A stretch of 64,000 nucleotides of DNA from positions 2,563-66,562 of the forward strand of contig WYBJ01000316.1 of the NCBI GenBank assembly GCA_011525945.1. The letters run 5' to 3'. Each line of letters opens with the position of its first letter. Position 1 is the first letter of the stretch. Shown one piece after another: positions 4,639 to 64,000 of this stretch. Origin of the DNA: Burkholderiaceae bacterium (GTDB lineage Bacteria > Pseudomonadota > Gammaproteobacteria > Burkholderiales > WYBJ01). The notes under the pieces were generated by a model. The model was given only the letters and a program-made list of their open reading frames with translations, did no database searches and was not told where the DNA came from. The position numbers were made by a program, and so were the translations under genes.

Positions 4639-6010
4639 CCCGGGAATCGAGCGCGAGCCGACCGCCCCGCGTTCGCGCGCGCGGGGGGCGGGTTACGATT
4701 ACGAGGCATTCACACCCGACTACCTTATCGCGCTGGCGCGGCCGCCATCGCCGCTGCCACGAGTCACGCTGTACCTAATCGCCGCCATTCTTACGGCCGC
4801 TGCCGCCGCCGTTGTCTACGGCGAGATCGATGTCGTCGCGGTTGCACCCGGCAAGCTCGTACCGCAATCGCTGCTGCGCATCGTGCAGCCCTCCGACGCG
4901 GGTGTGGTGCGCGAGATCCTGGTGCGGGAAGGTGAGGCTGTGGTCGAAGGACAGGTGCTGTTCCGGATGGACACCGAGTTGTCCGAGGCCGATGCTCGCA
5001 TCCTGGAGACCGAGATCGCGTTACGCCGTCTGCAGATCCGGCGGATCGATGCAGAAGCCGCCGGGGGCGCGTTCGATCGCATGGCCGATGATCGAGACGA
5101 TCTCTACGTTCAGGTTCAGGCTCAATTCAACGCCCGGCGCCGAGCGTTCGAGGATTCGCTCGCCGCCGAGCGCTCCGTTCTGGCGAAGGCGCACGAGGAT
5201 CTGCGTACGGCGCAGGAGATCGAAGCCAAACTCAAGCGCACCGCTCCGATTTACGTCGAGCAGGAAAAAGCATGGGAGAAGCTCGCGCGCGAGGGTTTCG
5301 CCGGCAAGCTGCTCGCATTGGAGCGACGCCGCAGCCGAATCGAGAACGAGCAGGACTTGCAGGCCCAACGCGCTGCTGTCATGAGCTCCCGTGCCGCCAT
5401 TGCGCTTTCGGAGCGACGCATAGCGCAGCTCGCCTCCAATCACCGCCGCGAGCTGAGCAACGAGCGTCTTGAGGCACAGGCGCAGCTCGAGCGGTTGCTG
5501 CAGGATATGGCAAAGCAGACGCATCGCAGCGACCGGCTCGAACTGCGCGCCCCGACCGCCGGTGTGGTCAAGGATCTCGCGACCCATAGCACGGGTACGG
5601 TAGTGGCGCCTGCGACCATCCTTGCCACTATCGTGCCGCGCGGCGAGCCGCTGGAGGCCGAAGTGTGGGTGACTAACCTTGACGCCGGGCAGGTGGCGCC
5701 TGGGGCGTCGGTACGACTGAAGCTCGCCGCCTTCCCTTATCAGCGTTACGGTATGCTCGAGGGCATCGTGCGCCACGTGAGTGCGGACGCGACGGAGCGC
5801 CCGGACGCCGCGAACCCGGGCGCCACGGCGCTTTACTACCGTGCCCTGGTCAGTATCGATGCAGCGTCGGCGCGGGTCGGCCTTGAACCGCAGCGACTGG
5901 TCTCGGGCATGCAGCTCGCCGCCGAGATTCACCTTGGCACGCGCACCTTGCTTGAGTATCTGCTCTCGCCGCTGCGGCGCACTCTGAACGAAGCGGGACG
6001 CGAGTCGTGA
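4631..6010 (+). CDS. HlyD family type I secretion periplasmic adaptor (membrane fusion protein)
   Basis: One N-terminal TM segment (VTLYLIAAILTAAAAAVVY), then GKLVPQS...VQPSDAGVVREILVREGEAVVEGQVLFRMD, a long coiled-coil and a C-terminal beta-barrel ending LLEYLLSPL. The track ORF starts at 4493 inside the ABC gene. GTG 4631 (8-nt overlap with the ABC stop) is the likely start, but this is uncertain. Confidence 0.85.
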   Translation: MSNPGIEREPTAPRSRARGAGYDYEAFTPDYLIALARPPSPLPRVTLYLIAAILTAAAAAVVYGEIDVVAVAPGKLVPQSLLRIVQPSDAGVVREILVREGEAVVEGQVLFRMDTELSEADARILETEIALRRLQIRRIDAEAAGGAFDRMADDRDDLYVQVQAQFNARRRAFEDSLAAERSVLAKAHEDLRTAQEIEAKLKRTAPIYVEQEKAWEKLAREGFAGKLLALERRRSRIENEQDLQAQRAAVMSSRAAIALSERRIAQLASNHRRELSNERLEAQAQLERLLQDMAKQTHRSDRLELRAPTAGVVKDLATHSTGTVVAPATILATIVPRGEPLEAEVWVTNLDAGQVAPGASVRLKLAAFPYQRYGMLEGIVRHVSADATERPDAANPGATALYYRALVSIDAASARVGLEPQRLVSGMQLAAEIHLGTRTLLEYLLSPLRRTLNEAGRES

Positions 6011-6501: not shown

Positions 6502-7260
6502 ATGCTGGGGATAATCGGTGGCAGTGGAGCGGGGAGGTTGGCGGCGCTGGAGGGCGAGCGCCTGCAGGCGATCCGCACGCCGTTCGGCGAGCCGTCCGCG
6601 GCGCTCACGTTCGGACGGCTGCAAGGCCGCGACGTCGTCTTTCTTGCGCGTCACGGTGATGGCCACACGATTCCACCGCACGCGATCAACTATCGTGCCA
6701 ACATCTGGGCACTGGCGCACGTTGGGGTGGGTGCAATCGTCGCCATCGCGGCGGTCGGCGGCATACGCCGCGATCTGGCCCCGGGTACGATCGCCGTTCC
6801 GTCTCAGATCATCGATTACACCTACGATCGGCAAGCCACGTTCTTCGACGGCCGCGCGGGCGAAGTCAGGCACATCGATTTCACCGAACCGTACACGGGC
6901 TGGCTGCGCGCAGCACTGCTGCGGGCCGGGCGCGATGCCGCAGAATCGATCATCGACGGCGGCGTCTATGCCGCCATGCAGGGTCCGCGACTCGAAACTG
7001 CGGCCGAAATTGATCGCCTGGAGCGCGATGGAGCCGACATGGTTGGCATGACGGGCATGCCGGAAGCGGCGCTTGCACGCGAAGCGGCGCTGTCGTACGC
7101 GACACTGGCGGTGGTGGCGAACTGGGCGGCTGGTCGCGCCCCGGGGCGCTGCGAAATCACGCCCGCCGATATCGACACAGTGCTCGAGGGTGCGATGGCG
7201 CGCGTGGCGAGGGTTGTGCTGCGTGTCGAGGTGCACGGTGGCAATCAGAGCCGTACTTAG
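6502..7260 (+). CDS. MTAP-family purine nucleoside phosphorylase (S-methyl-5'-thioadenosine/thioinosine phosphorylase)
   Basis: MLGIIGGSG...FGEPS...[22 protein letters not shown]...MTGMPEA motifs of the MTAP/PNP family. The gene starts 9 nt after the preceding stop. Confidence 0.85.
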
Positions 7261-7771
7261 GATGGGCGACCCGCTCCTACTGGAGCGATCGCGCGAGGTC
7301 ACCCGGTTCGGCACGGCCGAGCTCGATGCGCTTCTCACCGACATGCTCGATACGATGGAAGCGCTGAACGGTGCCGGGTTGGCGGCCCCGCAGATCGGAG
7401 TGCTGCTGCGGGTTGTCATCTTCGGCGTGAAGCGAAATCCGCGCTACCCCGATGCCGAGGAGGTGCCGTACACGGTACTCATTAATCCCGAGCTACGGCC
7501 CCTGGGCGAGGACATGGAAGAAGGCTGGGAGGGGTGCTTGAGCGTTCCCGGCATGCGCGGGCTGGTGCCGCGCTACCGGCGCGTCTCTTACAGGGGCTCG
7601 GATCAGTACGGCAGCCCGATCGAGCGCGACGTCACACGGTTCCATGCGCGCGTGGTGCAGCACGAATGCGACCACCTCGATGGCATCCTCTATCCGATGC
7701 GCATGCCGGATTTGCGTAACTTCGGCTTCACCGAAGTGTTGTTCCCGGGCGAAGCGCCAATCGAGGAGTGA
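7238..7771 (+). CDS. def: Peptide deformylase
   Basis: Motifs [16 protein letters not shown] and QHECDHLDG. The track ORF (7073) is an out-of-context extension. GTG 7238 gives the typical N-terminus (M)[14 protein letters not shown] and overlaps the upstream gene by 23 nt. ATG 7262 is an alternative start. Confidence 0.9.
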
Positions 7772-7797
7772 CGCACCTGGCGTTATGTGCCTTGCCG

Positions 7798-10398
7798 CTA
7801 CTCGATCTGCAGCGCTTGCAGCAGCTCGCTTTCCAGACGCACGCTGGTACGTGCATCCTTGAGCGCCGCGCCGGTAATGAGGAACGTGTCCTCCACGCGC
7901 TCGCCCAGGGTATTGATCTTGGCCGAATGCAGGTTGAGATCGTAGCGCACCAGCACCAGTGCGATGCGATAGAGCAGCCCGGGCCGGTCGCTTGAAATCA
8001 CGCTCAACACCGTGTAGGTTCCGCGCTCGTCGGGTTGCAGTTCGATTTCCGGGCTGATCGGAAAGTGGCGCACCCGACGGCTTAACCGGCCGCTCGCGGG
8101 CGGGTCCAGCGGCGCGCGCTGTTCCAGGCGTTGTGCCAGCTCGTGCTCGACGTAGCTCATCACGTCGCGGTAGCTCGTTGCGTCGCGCTCGTTCGGATCG
8201 AGGATGATGAAGCTGTCCAGCGCGTAGCCGTGGCGCGTCGTGTGGATCTTCGCCTCGGCGATGCTGAAGCCCGCGCGGCTGAAGAAGTGGCAGATACGCG
8301 CGAACAGCTCCTCCTGGTCGGGTGTGTAAATCAGCACCTGCAGGCCTTCGCCGTTCGGCGCCAGGCGTGCCTTGACGATCGGGACGGCGCTCTCCACGCG
8401 GTAGTTGAGCAAACGCGTGTGCCAGGCGATTTCCTGCGCTTCGTGACGCAGGAAGTACGACGTGTCGAGCTGCGCCCAGAGTTTTTCATGTGCGTCGTCG
8501 GGAATCGTATCCAGCCGCAGGCGCGACAAAGCCTCGGCTTGGCGCATTTCCACGCTCGATTGTCGCGACACGTGCTCACCCGCCAGCACCCGCCGCGTGG
8601 CCCAGAACAAGTCCTCCAGCAACTTGGCTTTCCAGCCGTTCCAGACCTTGGGGCTGGTGCCGCGGATGTCGGCCACGGTGAGCAGGTAGAGCGATACGAG
8701 ATGCCGGTCGTCACCGACCAGACAGGCGAATGCGCGCACCGTCGCGGGATCGTCGATGTCCTGCTTCTGGGCCGTTGCCGACATGCGCAGGTGATGACGC
8801 ACCAGCCAGGCGACCAGTTCGATATCTTCGGCGCAAAGGCCGTGGGCACGGCAAAAGCGCCGGGCGTCGGCTTCTCCGAGTACCGAATGATCGCCACCGC
8901 GACCTTTGGCAATATCGTGGAATAGGCCTGCGAGGTACAGCACCTCGGGGCGTTCGAGATCGCTGATGAGACGGCTGCAAAGCGGGTACTCGTGCGCGAG
9001 CTCGGGCACCGTGAAGCGCCTCAGATTGCGCACGACCTTGAAAATGTGCTCGTCGACCGTGTAGACGTGATAGAGGTCATGTTGCATCTGACCGACGACG
9101 CGGCCGAATGCCGGAATGTAGCGGCCGAGAATACCGTACTCGTTCATCCGCCGAAGCTCACGGATGAGCCGGGGATTACGCAGGATGGCCATGAAGCGGG
9201 CGCGATTGAGCGCATTGCTGCGAAACGCCGCGTCGATGCGACGGCGAGCCCGCCACAGTGCGCGCAGCGTACTTGCCCGCATTCCTTTAAGCTCGTGATG
9301 CTCCTGCAATAGCGCGAAGCATTCGAGAATCGCTGTCGGTTCGCGCTCGAACAACTCCTCGGTCGCCGACTCCAGCAGCTCGTTGCGCACGCGGAAGCGC
9401 TCGTTCAGCACCCGTGGTGCTTCGGTGCGCTGCGGGAAGATGCGTGCAGCCACGTTCTGATGCACGATGGTGTTGAGCTGACGCACGGCGTTGGCGGTGC
9501 GGTAGATCGTTTGCATGAGCTGCTCGCTTGCACGCCGGACCGTGCGGTCTTCCAGACCCAGCTCGCGCGCGAGCTGGGTCTGGTAGTCGAACAGCAACCT
9601 GTCCTCGCGCCGACCCGCCAGGTAGTGCAGACGGATGCGGATGTCGCTCAAGCAGCGCTCGAGGTGTTCCAGTTGACGAGCCTCGGCCGAAATTACCAGG
9701 CCGCTTGCAATCAACGCTCGCCAGGAGTTGCCGAGCTTGGCTGCGCGCGCGATCCATAGGAGGTGATGCAGATCGCGCAGGCCGCCGGGAAACTCCTTCA
9801 GATTCGGCTCGAGATTGGTGTCGACAAAACGTTCGTGCCGCTGGCGTTGCTCGAGCTGCTTCGCTTTGCAGAACATCTGCGGGTCGAGTGCGGCCTGGAA
9901 CTCGAGCCCGAAGCGACGAAAAAGTTGCCGGTCGCCGCAAAGCCAGCGTGCCTCAAGCAGGCTGGTCTGCACGGTGATGTCCTGCGCCGACAGTTCGACG
10001 CATTGCTGCGGTGTACGTACGCTGTGGCCGACTTCGAGTCCGATGTCCCAGAGCGTGCCGATCAGGCGTCCGATGCGCGGATCGTGCGCCGATGATTGGT
10101 CGGAATCGACCAGGATCAGCAGGTCGATGTCCGAGCATGGGAACAGCGTCCCGCGACCAAAACCACCGACGGCGACCAGAGCGCTGCCTGCGGGGTGTGA
10201 CAGCCCCCGCCATGCCTGTATCAGGACGCGGTCGACCAGACGGCGGTGCGCGATGAGCATGGGCCGAGGCGCGGCGCGGCGGCTATACGCCGCACGCAAT
10301 TGTTCTCTGCCTTGCTTGAGTCTGCGCCGCAGCAGCCCGACCTCGCCCTCGGCGCCGGTAGCGACGACGTCATCGTCGAGCGCCGGCGTTTCGGTCAT
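7798..10398 (-). CDS. glnD: Bifunctional [protein-PII] uridylyltransferase/uridylyl-removing enzyme
   Basis: 866 aa with a nucleotidyltransferase N-terminus (GGFGRGTLFPCSDIDLLIL), an HD domain (LFHDIAKG) and two C-terminal ACT domains. There is a 4-nt overlap with the upstream map gene. Confidence 0.95.
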   Translation of the reverse strand: MTETPALDDDVVATGAEGEVGLLRRRLKQGREQLRAAYSRRAAPRPMLIAHRRLVDRVLIQAWRGLSHPAGSALVAVGGFGRGTLFPCSDIDLLILVDSDQSSAHDPRIGRLIGTLWDIGLEVGHSVRTPQQCVELSAQDITVQTSLLEARWLCGDRQLFRRFGLEFQAALDPQMFCKAKQLEQRQRHERFVDTNLEPNLKEFPGGLRDLHHLLWIARAAKLGNSWRALIASGLVISAEARQLEHLERCLSDIRIRLHYLAGRREDRLLFDYQTQLARELGLEDRTVRRASEQLMQTIYRTANAVRQLNTIVHQNVAARIFPQRTEAPRVLNERFRVRNELLESATEELFEREPTAILECFALLQEHHELKGMRASTLRALWRARRRIDAAFRSNALNRARFMAILRNPRLIRELRRMNEYGILGRYIPAFGRVVGQMQHDLYHVYTVDEHIFKVVRNLRRFTVPELAHEYPLCSRLISDLERPEVLYLAGLFHDIAKGRGGDHSVLGEADARRFCRAHGLCAEDIELVAWLVRHHLRMSATAQKQDIDDPATVRAFACLVGDDRHLVSLYLLTVADIRGTSPKVWNGWKAKLLEDLFWATRRVLAGEHVSRQSSVEMRQAEALSRLRLDTIPDDAHEKLWAQLDTSYFLRHEAQEIAWHTRLLNYRVESAVPIVKARLAPNGEGLQVLIYTPDQEELFARICHFFSRAGFSIAEAKIHTTRHGYALDSFIILDPNERDATSYRDVMSYVEHELAQRLEQRAPLDPPASGRLSRRVRHFPISPEIELQPDERGTYTVLSVISSDRPGLLYRIALVLVRYDLNLHSAKINTLGERVEDTFLITGAALKDARTSVRLESELLQALQIE

Positions 10399-32455: not shown

Positions 32456-34647
<2,192 letters not shown>

Positions 34648-34656
34648 ACCGCACAC

Positions 34657-34965
34657 ATGGCCGCACGACTGCTCGCGCTGGGGCTGATTGCGCTCGTCGC
34701 GAGCCTCCAGTATGGCCTCTGGCTCGGCAAGGGTAGCTGGCTGCGCGTGTGGGAAATCGATCGCAAGATTACCGAGCAGCGACGCAGCAATGACCAGCTC
34801 AGTGCTCGCAATGCCGCGCTCGATGCCGAGGTCCGCGATCTGAAAGAAGGGCTTGGTGCGATCGAGGAGCGAGCGCGCAACGAGCTCGGCATGATCCGTT
34901 CCGACGAAATCTTCTTCCAGGTGCTGGAGCGTGCCGATGGTGATGGCGCGCGCGCTTCCCGCTGA
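34657..34965 (+). CDS. ftsB: Cell division protein FtsB
   Basis: 102 aa with an N-terminal TM segment, then a coiled-coil ([31 protein letters not shown]). It lies directly after eno, as in many proteobacteria. Confidence 0.88.
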
Positions 34966-61490: not shown

Positions 61491-62269
61491 GCATGGATAT
61501 CGACGCGGGTTTGGTTGACTCGCACTGCCACATCGATTTTCCGGATCTCGCCGGCGACATTTCAGGTGTGCTCGAGCGCATGGCCGATAGTGGCGTTACG
61601 CACGCGGTGTGCGTGAGTGTCAATCTGCAGGATTTTCCACGCGTCCTGCGACTTGCACACGAGCATTCGAATATCTTTGCGAGCGCCGGGGTGCATCCTG
61701 ATCACAGCGGAGACGAGCCGTCGGAGTCGGAATTGCGCGCGGCGGCAAGCGACGGGCGCGTCATCGCGGTCGGTGAAACGGGCCTCGACTACTACCGCTC
61801 GAGCGGGGATCTCGAAGCGCAACGCGAGCGCTTTCGGCGTCACATTCGCGTTGCGCGCGAGATTCGCAAGCCGCTCATCATCCACTGCCGCCAGTCGGCA
61901 GACGATCTGCTGCGCATCATGCACGAGGAAGGTGCTCGTGAGGCAGGCGGCGTGATGCATTGTTTCACCGAGTCCTGGGCGGTGGCCGAGCGGGCGATGG
62001 CGATGAACTTCCACATTTCGTTTTCGGGAATCGTGACGTTTCGCAACGCCGAGACGCTGCGCGAGGTAGCACGGCGCGTTCCGCTCGAGCGTATGCTGAT
62101 CGAAACGGACTCCCCGTACCTGGCGCCGGTACCCCATCGGGGCAAGACCAACGAGCCGGCATTCGTGCGCCACGTCGCCGAGGCTATCGCGCGAGTGCGC
62201 TCACTTCCAGTGGCGCAGATCGCTGCCGCCACGACCGAAAATTTCAACCGGTTATTTCATGCATTCTGA
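61487..62269 (+). CDS. ycfH: TatD-family metal-dependent hydrolase (YcfH-like)
   Basis: LVDSHCHIDF, GVHP, IGETGLDYY, IIHCR, FSGIVTF and ETDSPYLAP motifs. The ATG overlaps the holB stop. The position after holB matches E. coli ycfH. Confidence 0.9.
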   Translation: MSMDIDAGLVDSHCHIDFPDLAGDISGVLERMADSGVTHAVCVSVNLQDFPRVLRLAHEHSNIFASAGVHPDHSGDEPSESELRAAASDGRVIAVGETGLDYYRSSGDLEAQRERFRRHIRVAREIRKPLIIHCRQSADDLLRIMHEEGAREAGGVMHCFTESWAVAERAMAMNFHISFSGIVTFRNAETLREVARRVPLERMLIETDSPYLAPVPHRGKTNEPAFVRHVAEAIARVRSLPVAQIAAATTENFNRLFHAF

Positions 62270-62276
62270 CGCCACC

Positions 62277-62918
62277 ATGTTGCAATTTAAACGTTTCCTT
62301 GTGCTTCTCTGCCTAGCGATCGGGATGCGCACCGCGCTCGCGTCCGATTCCTACGAAGCGATGCTTGCAGCCGTGAAGAACGGCGATGTGTCCGTAGTCA
62401 ACGAACTGCTGGCCAAGGGAATCGATGTCGACTCGACCGATCGAATCGGCAGCACCCTCCTGATATCGGCATCGAGCCTCGGGCAGCTCGACGTCGCCAA
62501 GGCGCTGGTAGCGCACAAGGCGAACCTGAATGCGCGCAATCAATACGGGGAATCGGCCCTGATGTCGGCAGCTATCCGCGGGCATCGTGGGCTGGTCGAA
62601 TACTTGCTCGCGAGCGGCGCCGAGGTCAATGCGCCGGGGTGGACGGCGCTCATGTTCGCGGCGGTGAAAGGACACGACGAAATCGCGCGCGTACTGATCG
62701 CGAAGGGCGCCAACGTGAATGCTTCATCCGAAAACGGCACGACAGCGCTCATGCTGGCTGCCAAGGAAGGCAATCTCGATACCGTGTTATTGCTGCTCGA
62801 GCGCGGTGCTGCGCCGAACTTGCGGAATCTCGCCGGAGCCACGGCGCTGGGACTGGCACTCGAAGGTGGCCGCAAAAACGTTGTGGCCGCATTGATCCGG
62901 TCGGGCGCCGAACAATGA
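62277..62918 (+). CDS. Secreted ankyrin-repeat protein
   Basis: Signal peptide MLQFKRFLVLLCLAIGMRTALA/SD, followed by about five ankyrin repeats (G.TALM.AA..G...VV..LL..GA..N). Track ORF start 62259 overlaps the tatD-family stop; ATG 62277 gives the canonical signal peptide. Confidence 0.85.
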   Translation: MLQFKRFLVLLCLAIGMRTALASDSYEAMLAAVKNGDVSVVNELLAKGIDVDSTDRIGSTLLISASSLGQLDVAKALVAHKANLNARNQYGESALMSAAIRGHRGLVEYLLASGAEVNAPGWTALMFAAVKGHDEIARVLIAKGANVNASSENGTTALMLAAKEGNLDTVLLLLERGAAPNLRNLAGATALGLALEGGRKNVVAALIRSGAEQ

Positions 62919-62930
62919 CAGGCTTCGGCT

Positions 62931-62957
62931 GCCAGCAGCGGGGCCTCCGCTGCTGGC
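62931..62957 (+). terminator. Perfect 11-bp stem / 5-nt loop hairpin after the ankyrin gene
   Basis: gccagcagcgg-ggcct-ccgctgctggc, beginning 13 nt after the stop codon. It is followed by AAAAC rather than a T tract, so an intrinsic-terminator function is unproven. Confidence 0.4.
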
Positions 62958-63093: not shown

Positions 63094-63675
63094 CTAGGGG
63101 TTGCCTGAGTCGCCGTCGGCGCGCCGTGCGGCCACGGCTGCGGCAAACTCGCCCTGCACGGTCCCCAGCGTCTTGAGCCAGCGCTGACCACCGAATGTGA
63201 AGCCTATCCAGTACCCGAGCTCGACCAGTTCGGGTTCGGTGAATTCCGCATGCAGCGCCGACCATAGCTTGTCGTCGGCCTGCGCCGGGTCGTACATGAT
63301 CGCATCCGCATAGCGCAGAGCGAGCTTTTCGCGCGGGGTGAAGCGCGCTGACTTCTCGTAAGCCATCAGCTCGCTCATACGACTATCCGCCTCCCGCGCC
63401 GACCGCGCGGTGCCCTGATTACTTCAGTATCGGCACTCGACCGTGTAGGCGACATAGGCGCGCGTCAGCTCCTTCAGATCGTGCTCGAGTACCCCCGCGC
63501 CATCGTCGAACAGCATCTTGCGGGTGACGGTGAAAGAGCGCATGACATCGGGCTGATGCGCCCGGATCGCTTGATTCTCGGGACCCGGCCGACCGGCCGT
63601 AATAGCTTCCTGCAGCCACTCGCGGCATTGCGGGTCGGAAATGGCACTCGGATCGACGTAGCTGATGTGCGCCAT
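63094..63675 (-). CDS. Carboxymuconolactone decarboxylase/AhpD-like family protein with in-frame TGA (63424..63426): candidate selenoprotein (CxxU); alternatively a nonsense-disrupted pseudogene
   Basis: Track ORFs 63424..63675 and 63094..63378 share strand and frame and are separated only by one TGA and 15 sense codons. The merged 193-codon product has the CMD-family layout (MAHISYVDP...ECRY[TGA]SNQG...FTPREKLALRYADAIM...FTEPELVELGY). The TGA sits at the second Cys of the family's CxxC motif. Confidence 0.6.
63394..63410 (-). promoter_or_regulatory. SECIS-like stem-loop downstream of the in-frame TGA
   Basis: On the mRNA: UGA, 13 nt, then CCGCGC-GGUCG-GCGCGG (six G:C pairs, 5-nt loop with leading GGU). 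The loop starts 19 nt after the UGA. Confidence 0.45.
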
Positions 63676-63797
63676 GGACAGCTCCTCAGCGAGCTAGTCT
63701 ACCGCAGGGCGGCGTGTGGGGCACGCCGCGCAGCAATTGGACATCGTAACCGTGTTTTCTTAGACTGATCCTCTCGCGGACCTCGAGGGATGGATTC

Positions 63798-64000
63798 ATG
63801 AGCACAGGATTCGAAATCGTCAATCCGATCGCGCGGGTGTCGAGCGCGGACGTCGGCGCCGCTGCGGGCGCGAGGCGCGTCACCCAGGTCGAAGGCTTGC
63901 GCATCGGCCTCCTGGACAACGGGATGCCGCACGCGGTTGATTTTCTGACGCACCTGGGCGCGGCATTCGAGCGCCGCTACCGCACGCCGATCATCATGCG
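63798..64000 (+). CDS. Hypothetical protein, 3' end outside window (divergent from the AhpD-like gene)
   Basis: ATG 63798 lies 8 nt after GAGGGA and the frame is open for 67 codons to the window edge (MSTGFEIVNPIARVSSADVG...LRIGLLDNGMPHAVDFLTHLGAAFERRYRTPIIM). It is absent from the track because no stop is reached. Confidence 0.45.
   Translation, partial: MSTGFEIVNPIARVSSADVGAAAGARRVTQVEGLRIGLLDNGMPHAVDFLTHLGAAFERRYRTPIIM

Follow-up and report, generated by a model that had tools for sequence, protein, structure and literature searches.

A predicted selenoprotein gene of the AhpD/CMD fold, interrupted by an in-frame TGA, in a Burkholderiaceae contig

Introduction

Close to one end of a 64,000-nucleotide stretch of DNA from a Burkholderiaceae bacterium (assembly GCA_011525945.1, contig WYBJ01000316.1, positions 2,563 to 66,562; the whole stretch is called the window here), two minus-strand open reading frames (ORFs) follow one another in one frame, at 63424..63675 (83 amino acids) and at 63094..63378 (94 amino acids). 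Their starts are 297 nt apart, and they are separated by a single TGA, at 63424..63426, and 15 sense codons. The locus raises the question of whether these are two genes, the remains of one gene, or a single gene in which the UGA is read as selenocysteine (Sec). An earlier note on this DNA had favoured the last of these, and the coordinates, the shared frame, the spacing and the 193 codons that it gave for the merged product were all recovered exactly when we re-read the sequence. From comparison of the sequence with its orthologues, we conclude that 63094..63675 on the minus strand is very probably one functional gene for a 192-residue, YciW-like thiol/selenol oxidoreductase of the AhpD/CMD fold, in which UGA84 would be recoded to Sec.

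Results

The TGA stands at a conserved redox position

Read through the TGA, the two ORFs give a merged product of 193 codons, counting the predicted Sec84, which begins at an ATG (63673..63675) in agreement with the N-termini of full-length homologues, ends at a TAG (63094..63096) and reads ...AYTVECRY[TGA]SNQGTARSAREADSRMSEL... around the interruption. The continuous frame and the collinear orthologues mark 63094..63675 as a predicted complete gene. The TGA supplies the second position of the motif C81-R-Y-U84 and aligns with a Cys of the homologues; the first residue of this CxxU pair and the predicted resolving thiol, Cys81, is encoded by the TGC at 63433..63435. In an alignment of the merged protein with 27 full-length homologues (alignment A1), the TGA falls on the second Cys of C-x-Y-C-S-N-Q-G, a residue that is nearly invariant, and Cys81 is invariant both in this alignment and in 61 of 61 sequences of the Sec clade.

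A genome scan in which each species was represented by one genome recovered 79 loci. At 62 of them an in-frame stop is found exactly at codon 84, followed by about 100 open codons; these Sec-type loci are 64–84 % identical in amino acid sequence, are mostly labelled Burkholderiales or Betaproteobacteria, and derive from lake, groundwater and other environmental assemblies. Thirteen of the 79 carry Cys at this column and are mostly labelled Acidimicrobiia or Actinomycetota. All 63 sequences (the window and the 62 species representatives) have TGA at codon 84, none has TAA or TAG, and the corresponding codon of the Cys-clade loci is TGC in 13 of 13. The scan was not biased to TGA, as the sole search peptide spanning the site had been back-translated with Cys. 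No Cys form of more than 65 % identity was found among 5.8 billion proteins. The Sec/Cys pair that is looked for in a bacterial selenoprotein gene is therefore present, and the placing of the TGA at the second redox Cys, as proposed in the earlier note, is confirmed by the A1 column and by the division of the loci between TGA and TGC.

Several of the metagenome-assembled genome (MAG) records behind L014, L022, L030, L040, L041, L049, L054, L056, L066, L069, L083 and L085 have implausible titles (uncultured Streptomycetaceae, Streptomyces sp., 'Bordetella parapertussis', 'Chitinophaga pinensis' and Acidobacteriota). These oddly titled loci are nonetheless 64–83 % identical to the Burkholderiales gene, and it is probable that the taxon labels were mis-assigned or the contigs mis-binned.

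A covarying hairpin follows the UGA

A hairpin resembling a selenocysteine insertion sequence (SECIS) is situated at 63394..63410 on the minus strand, within codons 89–94 (T-A-R-S-A-R). Its 5' arm, CCGCGC (63405..63410), and its 3' arm, GCGCGG (63394..63399), make a stem of six G:C pairs around the loop GGUCG (63400..63404). The stem begins 13 nt and the loop 19 nt after the TGA, in each respect as the earlier note had described them, and the hairpin of the window folds at −11.6 kcal/mol.

Comparison of the 54 nt around the TGA in all 63 sequences (alignment A2) reveals that 97 % of the cells in stem columns 23–29 with 33–39 are paired. Compensatory changes are present at pair 24–38, from CG to UA (3) or AU (2), at pair 27–35, from GC to AU (1), and at pair 29–33, from GC to AU (4). 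The observed covariation score was reached by none of 500 shuffles; when the 3' partner was slid as a control, pairing fell to 18–68 % and no compensatory changes were seen; and RNAalifold independently gives the same stem. The compensatory events join a synonymous change in one arm to an amino acid change in the other, for example ACC to ACU with CGG to CAG. Moreover, the third positions of Ala90, Arg91, Ala93 and Arg94, which are four- or six-fold degenerate, vary by 0.00–0.03 against a gene average of about 0.30. We conclude from these frozen third positions that selection acts on the RNA itself.

The published consensus for bacterial SECIS elements has a loop of 3–9 nt with G in the first two loop positions, a stem of 4–16 bp, a distance of 16–37 nt from UGA to loop and a minimum free energy no higher than −7.5 kcal/mol (PMC13188914, Fig. 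2A legend). All 63 hairpins lie within these bounds, with stems of 5–7 bp, loops of GUC, GGUCG, GGUCU or GGC, spacings of 19–20 nt and minimum free energies of −7.7 to −11.9 kcal/mol. If the loop is read as five nucleotides, it is GGUCC in 42 sequences, which fits the pattern N1-G-[G/U]-N-N2 with N1 and N2 pairing. No conserved structure was found at the hairpin site in the TGC-bearing orthologues (13 loci). The two comparisons that had been suggested along with the original prediction, of the fold with a bacterial SECIS model and of TGA-bearing with TGC-bearing orthologues, thus both came out in its favour. A scan of the whole window against Rfam at gathering thresholds gave no match; an element as short as a bacterial SECIS would hardly be expected to score above any Rfam gathering threshold. 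The GGUC of the loop had also been likened to that in the apical loop of the Escherichia coli fdhF SECIS; a UGA followed after 18 nt by GGUC is indeed found within fdhF in 5419 of 5426 E. coli genomes. Overall, the comparative sequence data support the view that UGA84 is decoded and that the SECIS-type hairpin is under selection.

Family and fold of the merged protein

The Pfam family PF02627 (CMD) matches residues 42–124 with 23.9 bits, barely above its gathering score of 23. The best curated match is NCBIfam NF053654, 'GroundWater_YciW, YciW-related (seleno)protein'. Its alignment is collinear and nearly full-length (residues 1–159 on positions 1–158 of a 179-position profile), and the score of 48.6 bits lies so far below the cut-off of 310 that we take NF053654 to be a sister family of which the gene is not a member. 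NCBIfam TIGR01926, 'peroxidase-related enzyme', is likewise matched below its cut-off (30.8 against 81.8 bits), which places the relationship at the level of the superfamily only.

Profile comparison with solved structures brought up the debrominase Bmp8, in which C-M-Y-C aligns with C-T-Y-C of the family, together with Atu0492 and PA0269. The AlphaFold model is all-helical, with a predicted local distance difference test score (pLDDT) of 72, and in a Foldseek search of the PDB it superimposes on 3c1l, 2prr, 6ohj, 7xw1 and 6e8l with TM scores of 0.6–0.7. The CxxU motif, C81-R-Y-U84, is thereby located at the CxxC redox centre of an AhpD/CMD fold. The protein is a divergent representative of the AhpD/CMD fold whose centre is of the CxxC type, and its earlier assignment to the CMD/AhpD-like family holds, given the marginal excess over the PF02627 gathering score, the YciW-related best match and the AhpD-fold structures retrieved.

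Many of the Cys homologues are labelled 'alkylhydroperoxidase family enzyme' by the Joint Genome Institute (JGI), which we take to be the product name of COG2128. The canonical catalytic set of AhpD is CxxCxxxH. The His of this set, four residues after the second Cys, is missing from the protein described here, and its position is occupied by Gly88, which is invariant in alignment A1.

Decoding of the UGA and alternative explanations

Several points weigh against reading the locus as a selenoprotein gene. The family models fit only weakly, all NCBIfam (seleno)protein models being far under their cut-offs, and the chemistry may differ from that of AhpD because Gly88 replaces the His. The hairpin is devoid of the bulged U of E. 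coli fdhF, and as its stem lies in the conserved T-A-R-S-A-R peptide, the conservation of its sequence is partly at the protein level. Taken from the window by itself, the 61-nt fold (−20 kcal/mol) has a z-score of −1.4 and is equalled by 22 of 200 shuffles. The earlier note had argued that a chance nonsense mutation would not be expected to coincide with both a redox Cys and a properly spaced hairpin; the hairpin and its spacing are real, but in a single sequence they are not beyond chance, so this argument is weaker than was assumed and the significance of the hairpin rests on the comparative data. Finally, a search of the window and of 60 loci, covering 64 kb of this genome and the short flanks of relatives, gave no tRNA gene of any kind and so no tRNA-Sec, and SelA, SelB and SelD are absent, as judged by Pfam, from the 10 size-matched ORFs of the window, a result with no bearing on the remainder of the genome. 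These ten are housekeeping genes (rseP, dxr, bamA, pyrG, eno, ppsA, uvrB and others).

The fact that Sec machinery was not observed in the window and short flanks lends itself to the explanation that read-through of the UGA takes place without selenium, either because the hairpin stimulates a near-cognate or suppressor tRNA to insert Trp, Cys or Arg, or because UGA has been reassigned in this lineage. Structure-stimulated read-through does exist in other systems. However, TGA is the commonest ordinary stop in the window, where it closes 33 of 48 coding-like ORFs, and from this we conclude that it has not been reassigned. In addition, the interrupted position is the redox Cys of the homologues, giving a classic Sec/Cys pair, the loop is of the SelB type, G-G-U-C, at a spacing like that in fdhF, and the adjacent gene, from a curated (seleno)protein family, has a TGA at a known Sec position (see below). 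We consider read-through without selenium to be improbable on this evidence. A sweep of the whole window for TGA-interrupted coding regions returned only the target and a trivial gene junction after enolase, whose terminal TGA at 34645 precedes the in-frame ATG of the next gene at 34657.

Gene callers predict precisely two ORFs here, and codon 100 (63376..63378), which they use as the start of the 94-residue ORF, specifies a Met that is invariant in 61 of 61 orthologues. Both observations would suit a split gene, in which an 83-residue N-terminal protein and a separate 94-residue protein starting at Met100 associate non-covalently and the hairpin serves in translational coupling or mRNA stability. 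Met100 is probably a structural residue and less probably an internal start. Against two polypeptides stand the codons that neither of them would include. The amino acids at codons 85–88 (S-N-Q-G), between the TGA and the ATG used by the gene callers, are invariant, and variation at the third positions reaches 38 % at Asn86 and 30 % at Gly88. Since amino acids are conserved across codons 85–99 while synonymous sites vary, we conclude that these codons are translated. A true stop would be expected to have exchanged with TAA or TAG at such divergence, and it is TGA throughout the 63 sequences; a split gene would also forfeit the second redox residue that every Cys homologue retains, and the hairpin conforms to the SECIS consensus. 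These comparisons argue strongly against a two-polypeptide arrangement, to which we attach only a slight probability.

Codons 2–83 were compared with codons 85–177 in 61 collinear sequences. The ratio of non-synonymous to synonymous substitution rates (dN/dS) is 0.12 upstream and 0.12 downstream, with dS of about 1.1–1.3, and all 61 sequences have a single in-frame stop within codons 1–177. The frame beyond the UGA is thus open, and by these sequence measures purifying selection is as strong after the UGA as before it. The near-identical strains L001–L010, with at most 10 differences in 882 nt, are too similar to be informative on selection. A pseudogene, formed by a nonsense change of TGC or TGT to TGA at the active-site Cys beside a coincidental hairpin, would need one base change only, and it would suit both the annotation as two hypothetical ORFs and the fold that is not significant in a single sequence. 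It is nevertheless excluded by the equal selection on the two sides of the TGA, downstream dN/dS being low at dS above 1; there are, moreover, no extra stops or frameshifts, the TGA recurs at the same codon in 63 of 63 diverged genomes with no other stop codon in its place, and the hairpin has compensatory changes and frozen synonymous sites, so that the probability of a pseudogene is very small indeed. An error of sequencing or assembly has practically no probability, because the identical 83-residue product, always followed by the 94-residue ORF, is present on 21 contigs of near-identical strains, which derive from many separate runs and samples and include one from an NCBI MAG (GCA_020850975.1, 'Burkholderiales bacterium', contig JADZDQ010000031.1), and the same TGA is found in 62 other genomes.

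Gene calls

A search with the 83-residue fragment identified more than 120 further clusters of 83-residue calls with 78–89 % identity, and those that are named come from Burkholderiales or Betaproteobacteria MAGs. The merged protein, used as the query, retrieved full-length homologues of about 196 residues with identities of 65 % or less, of which those with a taxon label are Acidimicrobiia. Within the collection of 5.8 billion proteins, the close Sec clade is never called at full length. In every gene call seen, the caller stops at the UGA and restarts at Met100, yielding two 'hypothetical proteins'; that standard ORF calling splits the gene, as had been anticipated, is borne out by the paired calls on the contigs and by the clusters. 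As the score against NF053654 is far below its cut-off, the NCBI pipeline has no model that would annotate the gene as a selenoprotein.

A neighbouring UGSC gene with its own TGA

The divergent neighbour of the gene, at 63798..64000 on the plus strand, consists of the first 67 codons of a UGSC-domain fusion protein, the gene continuing past the window's end. The complete gene is found at 9878..8268 (minus strand of the locus) in L001, the locus of the NCBI MAG, and 63798..63998 of the window matches residues 1–67 of its product in a tblastn search. An in-frame TGA (codon 99, in V-U-G-G-C) would lie some 92 nt beyond the end of the window. In L001, a call of 98 residues for the UGSC portion ends ...GFGV-TGA-GGC-GGC-TGC and is followed by 23 in-frame codons that lead into a called gene of 414 residues. 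The callers thus give 98 and 414 residues where the merged product has 536, with a C-terminal domain of about 360 residues that has no Pfam match.

PF24696 (UGSC) is matched across the TGA with 122 bits against a threshold of 25, with the U-G-x-C motif of the domain in place, and NF041046, 'UGSC family (seleno)protein', is matched with 86 bits against a cut-off of 125. Beginning 11 nt after this UGA there is a hairpin of 8 bp whose loop is GUG. In each of the 19 relatives from metagenomes, with identities as low as about 28 %, TGA occupies the U position of U-G-[S/G/A]-C, and the hairpin is conserved in all of them. This conserved TGA in an adjacent gene is an independent indication that the genome decodes Sec. 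In L050, which comes from another species of the clade, a gene of the UGSC type (5254..5568), with a TGA at 5455 in D-U-G-S-C, is found 1.9 kb downstream of the Sec-type CMD gene, and its hairpin has a compensatory change from G-C to C-G; here, for a second time, the two predicted selenoprotein genes are near one another. Directly downstream of the UGSC fusion in L001, at 7222..8271 (minus strand of the locus), there is a 349-residue paralogue comprising the C-terminal domain only; it is 33 % identical to residues 210–535, lacks a UGSC domain and is unmatched in Pfam.

Regular-expression and tblastn searches of the loci revealed UGSC genes adjacent to the Sec-type CMD gene only in the species of the window (L001–L010), apart from the more distant gene in L050. 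No conserved gene neighbourhood was found around the Sec-type CMD gene across the loci, and no operon-based inference of function can therefore be drawn. Its commonest neighbours are TctC-family receptors, followed by oxidoreductases of the Zn-dependent alcohol dehydrogenase type. TctC-family receptors are very numerous in Burkholderiales.

Flanking features of the gene

A Shine–Dalgarno-like GAGGAG is present at 63682..63687 (minus strand), 6 nt 5' of the ATG. A promoter scan gave a single weak promoter-like site, which is on the plus strand and is uninformative, and a terminator scan called none. Convergent with the predicted selenoprotein gene, at 62259..62918 on the plus strand, is the gene of a 219-residue ankyrin-repeat protein (Pfam Ank_2, 146 bits) whose N-terminus appears by eye to be hydrophobic and signal-like; in L001 an ORF of 197 residues is called where the window has the ankyrin ORF. 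Between the two convergent genes, at 62931..62957, there is a perfect inverted repeat of 11 bp, GCCAGCAGCGG-AGGCC-CCGCTGCTGGC (minus strand), in which the T-run precedes the stem and does not follow it; this repeat was not called in the terminator scan.

Discussion

Sec insertion at this locus may be pictured as follows. The ribosome would reach UGA84 while the G:C hairpin, with its G-G-U-C loop, sits 19–20 nt downstream in the coding sequence; SelB·GTP·Sec-tRNA(Sec) would bind the GGUC loop and deliver Sec in competition with release factor 2. In AhpD of Mycobacterium tuberculosis the second Cys of the CxxC motif is the nucleophile, and it is by this analogy that U84 is assigned the same role here. 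Its selenolate might attack an oxidised substrate, either a hydroperoxide or the sulfenate or disulfide of a partner protein. Cys81 could then resolve the adduct to give a selenenylsulfide, which a cellular thiol reductant would be expected to reduce.

The gene is best described, from its sequence, as a new member or an unmodelled subfamily of the known AhpD-like CxxU kind, and not as a new class. A more far-reaching interpretation would make it the representative of a distinct C-x-Y-U-S-N-Q-G subfamily of AhpD-fold selenoproteins that has no catalytic His, in which Sec is fixed, which arose by inter-phylum transfer followed by conversion of Cys to Sec, and which forms a redox relay with a UGSC partner using chemistry other than that of AhpD, for example reductive chemistry like that of Bmp8. 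Sec does appear to be fixed across the sampled clade, which is largely labelled Burkholderiales, and the transfer and conversion would be implied by the only close Cys relatives being mostly labelled Acidimicrobiia. Were it true, the gene and the UGSC-fusion selenoprotein beside it in some genomes could form a relay of two selenoproteins. We regard this combination as rather unlikely and put it forward tentatively.

What the analysis adds is a Sec-fixed clade of the AhpD fold with a compact GGUC-loop SECIS that is well supported by covariation, and a pair of predicted recoded genes that are direct neighbours in one genome. The gene is mis-called, being split in two, across a whole group of uncultured Burkholderiales, and no curated NCBIfam model captures it; the alignment made here could seed a new model and so correct the annotation of at least 62 species-level genomes. 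The result is correct and useful for annotation and would not surprise a specialist.

Comparison with known systems

An AhpD-like selenoprotein family with a CxxU motif (COG2128/YciW, TIGR01926) has been predicted from the Sargasso Sea and Global Ocean Sampling (GOS) metagenomes (PMC1088965, PMC2398784, PMC9312934, PMC13188914) and has ranked, since 2005, with the most abundant families of predicted bacterial selenoproteins. The AhpD-like 2/CMD proteins (PF02627, CxxU) and the UGSC-containing selenoproteins were likewise predicted from marine metagenomes between 2005 and 2008 and appear in current reviews and databases. The statement in the earlier note that AhpD-like selenoproteins are a known class therefore has the backing of the literature (PMC1088965, PMC2398784, PMC9312934). 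The gene of the window belongs to their superfamily, and it shares with the AhpD-like CxxU family the all-helical fold, Sec in place of the second Cys of CxxC, a bacterial SECIS directly downstream and the existence of Cys homologues. It differs in falling far below the TIGR01926 cut-off and in its motif, C-x-Y-U-S-N-Q-G without the downstream His; its Sec clade, moreover, is made up of environmental assemblies labelled largely Burkholderiales or Betaproteobacteria and not of marine reads. With GroundWater_YciW (NF053654) it has in common the collinear alignment over nearly the full length.

AhpD of M. tuberculosis, the Pseudomonas AhpD PA0269 (7xw1, 2ijc, 2o4d) and Bmp8 (6ohi/6ohj) share its fold and have the CxxC pair equivalently placed. 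These are Cys enzymes, however, with 14–25 % identity to the protein described here, and the His of the CxxCxxxH set of canonical AhpD corresponds to Gly88.

The UGSC-containing proteins are a long-recognised family of predicted selenoproteins, which includes a UGSC/Unknown_1 fusion (PMC2398784). The neighbouring gene has the UGSC domain (NF041046/PF24696), the TGA at the U of U-G-x-C and the conserved hairpin of this family, and it is set apart by its U-G-G-C motif, its fused C-terminal domain and a score under the NCBIfam cut-off.

The hairpin of the window is short (6–7 bp) and has no long lower stem, unlike the SECIS of E. coli fdhF. Nevertheless, the two elements are alike in lying within the ORF just 3' of the UGA, in presenting a GGUC loop on a G/C-rich stem, and in the distance from UGA to loop, which is 18 nt in fdhF and 19 nt here.

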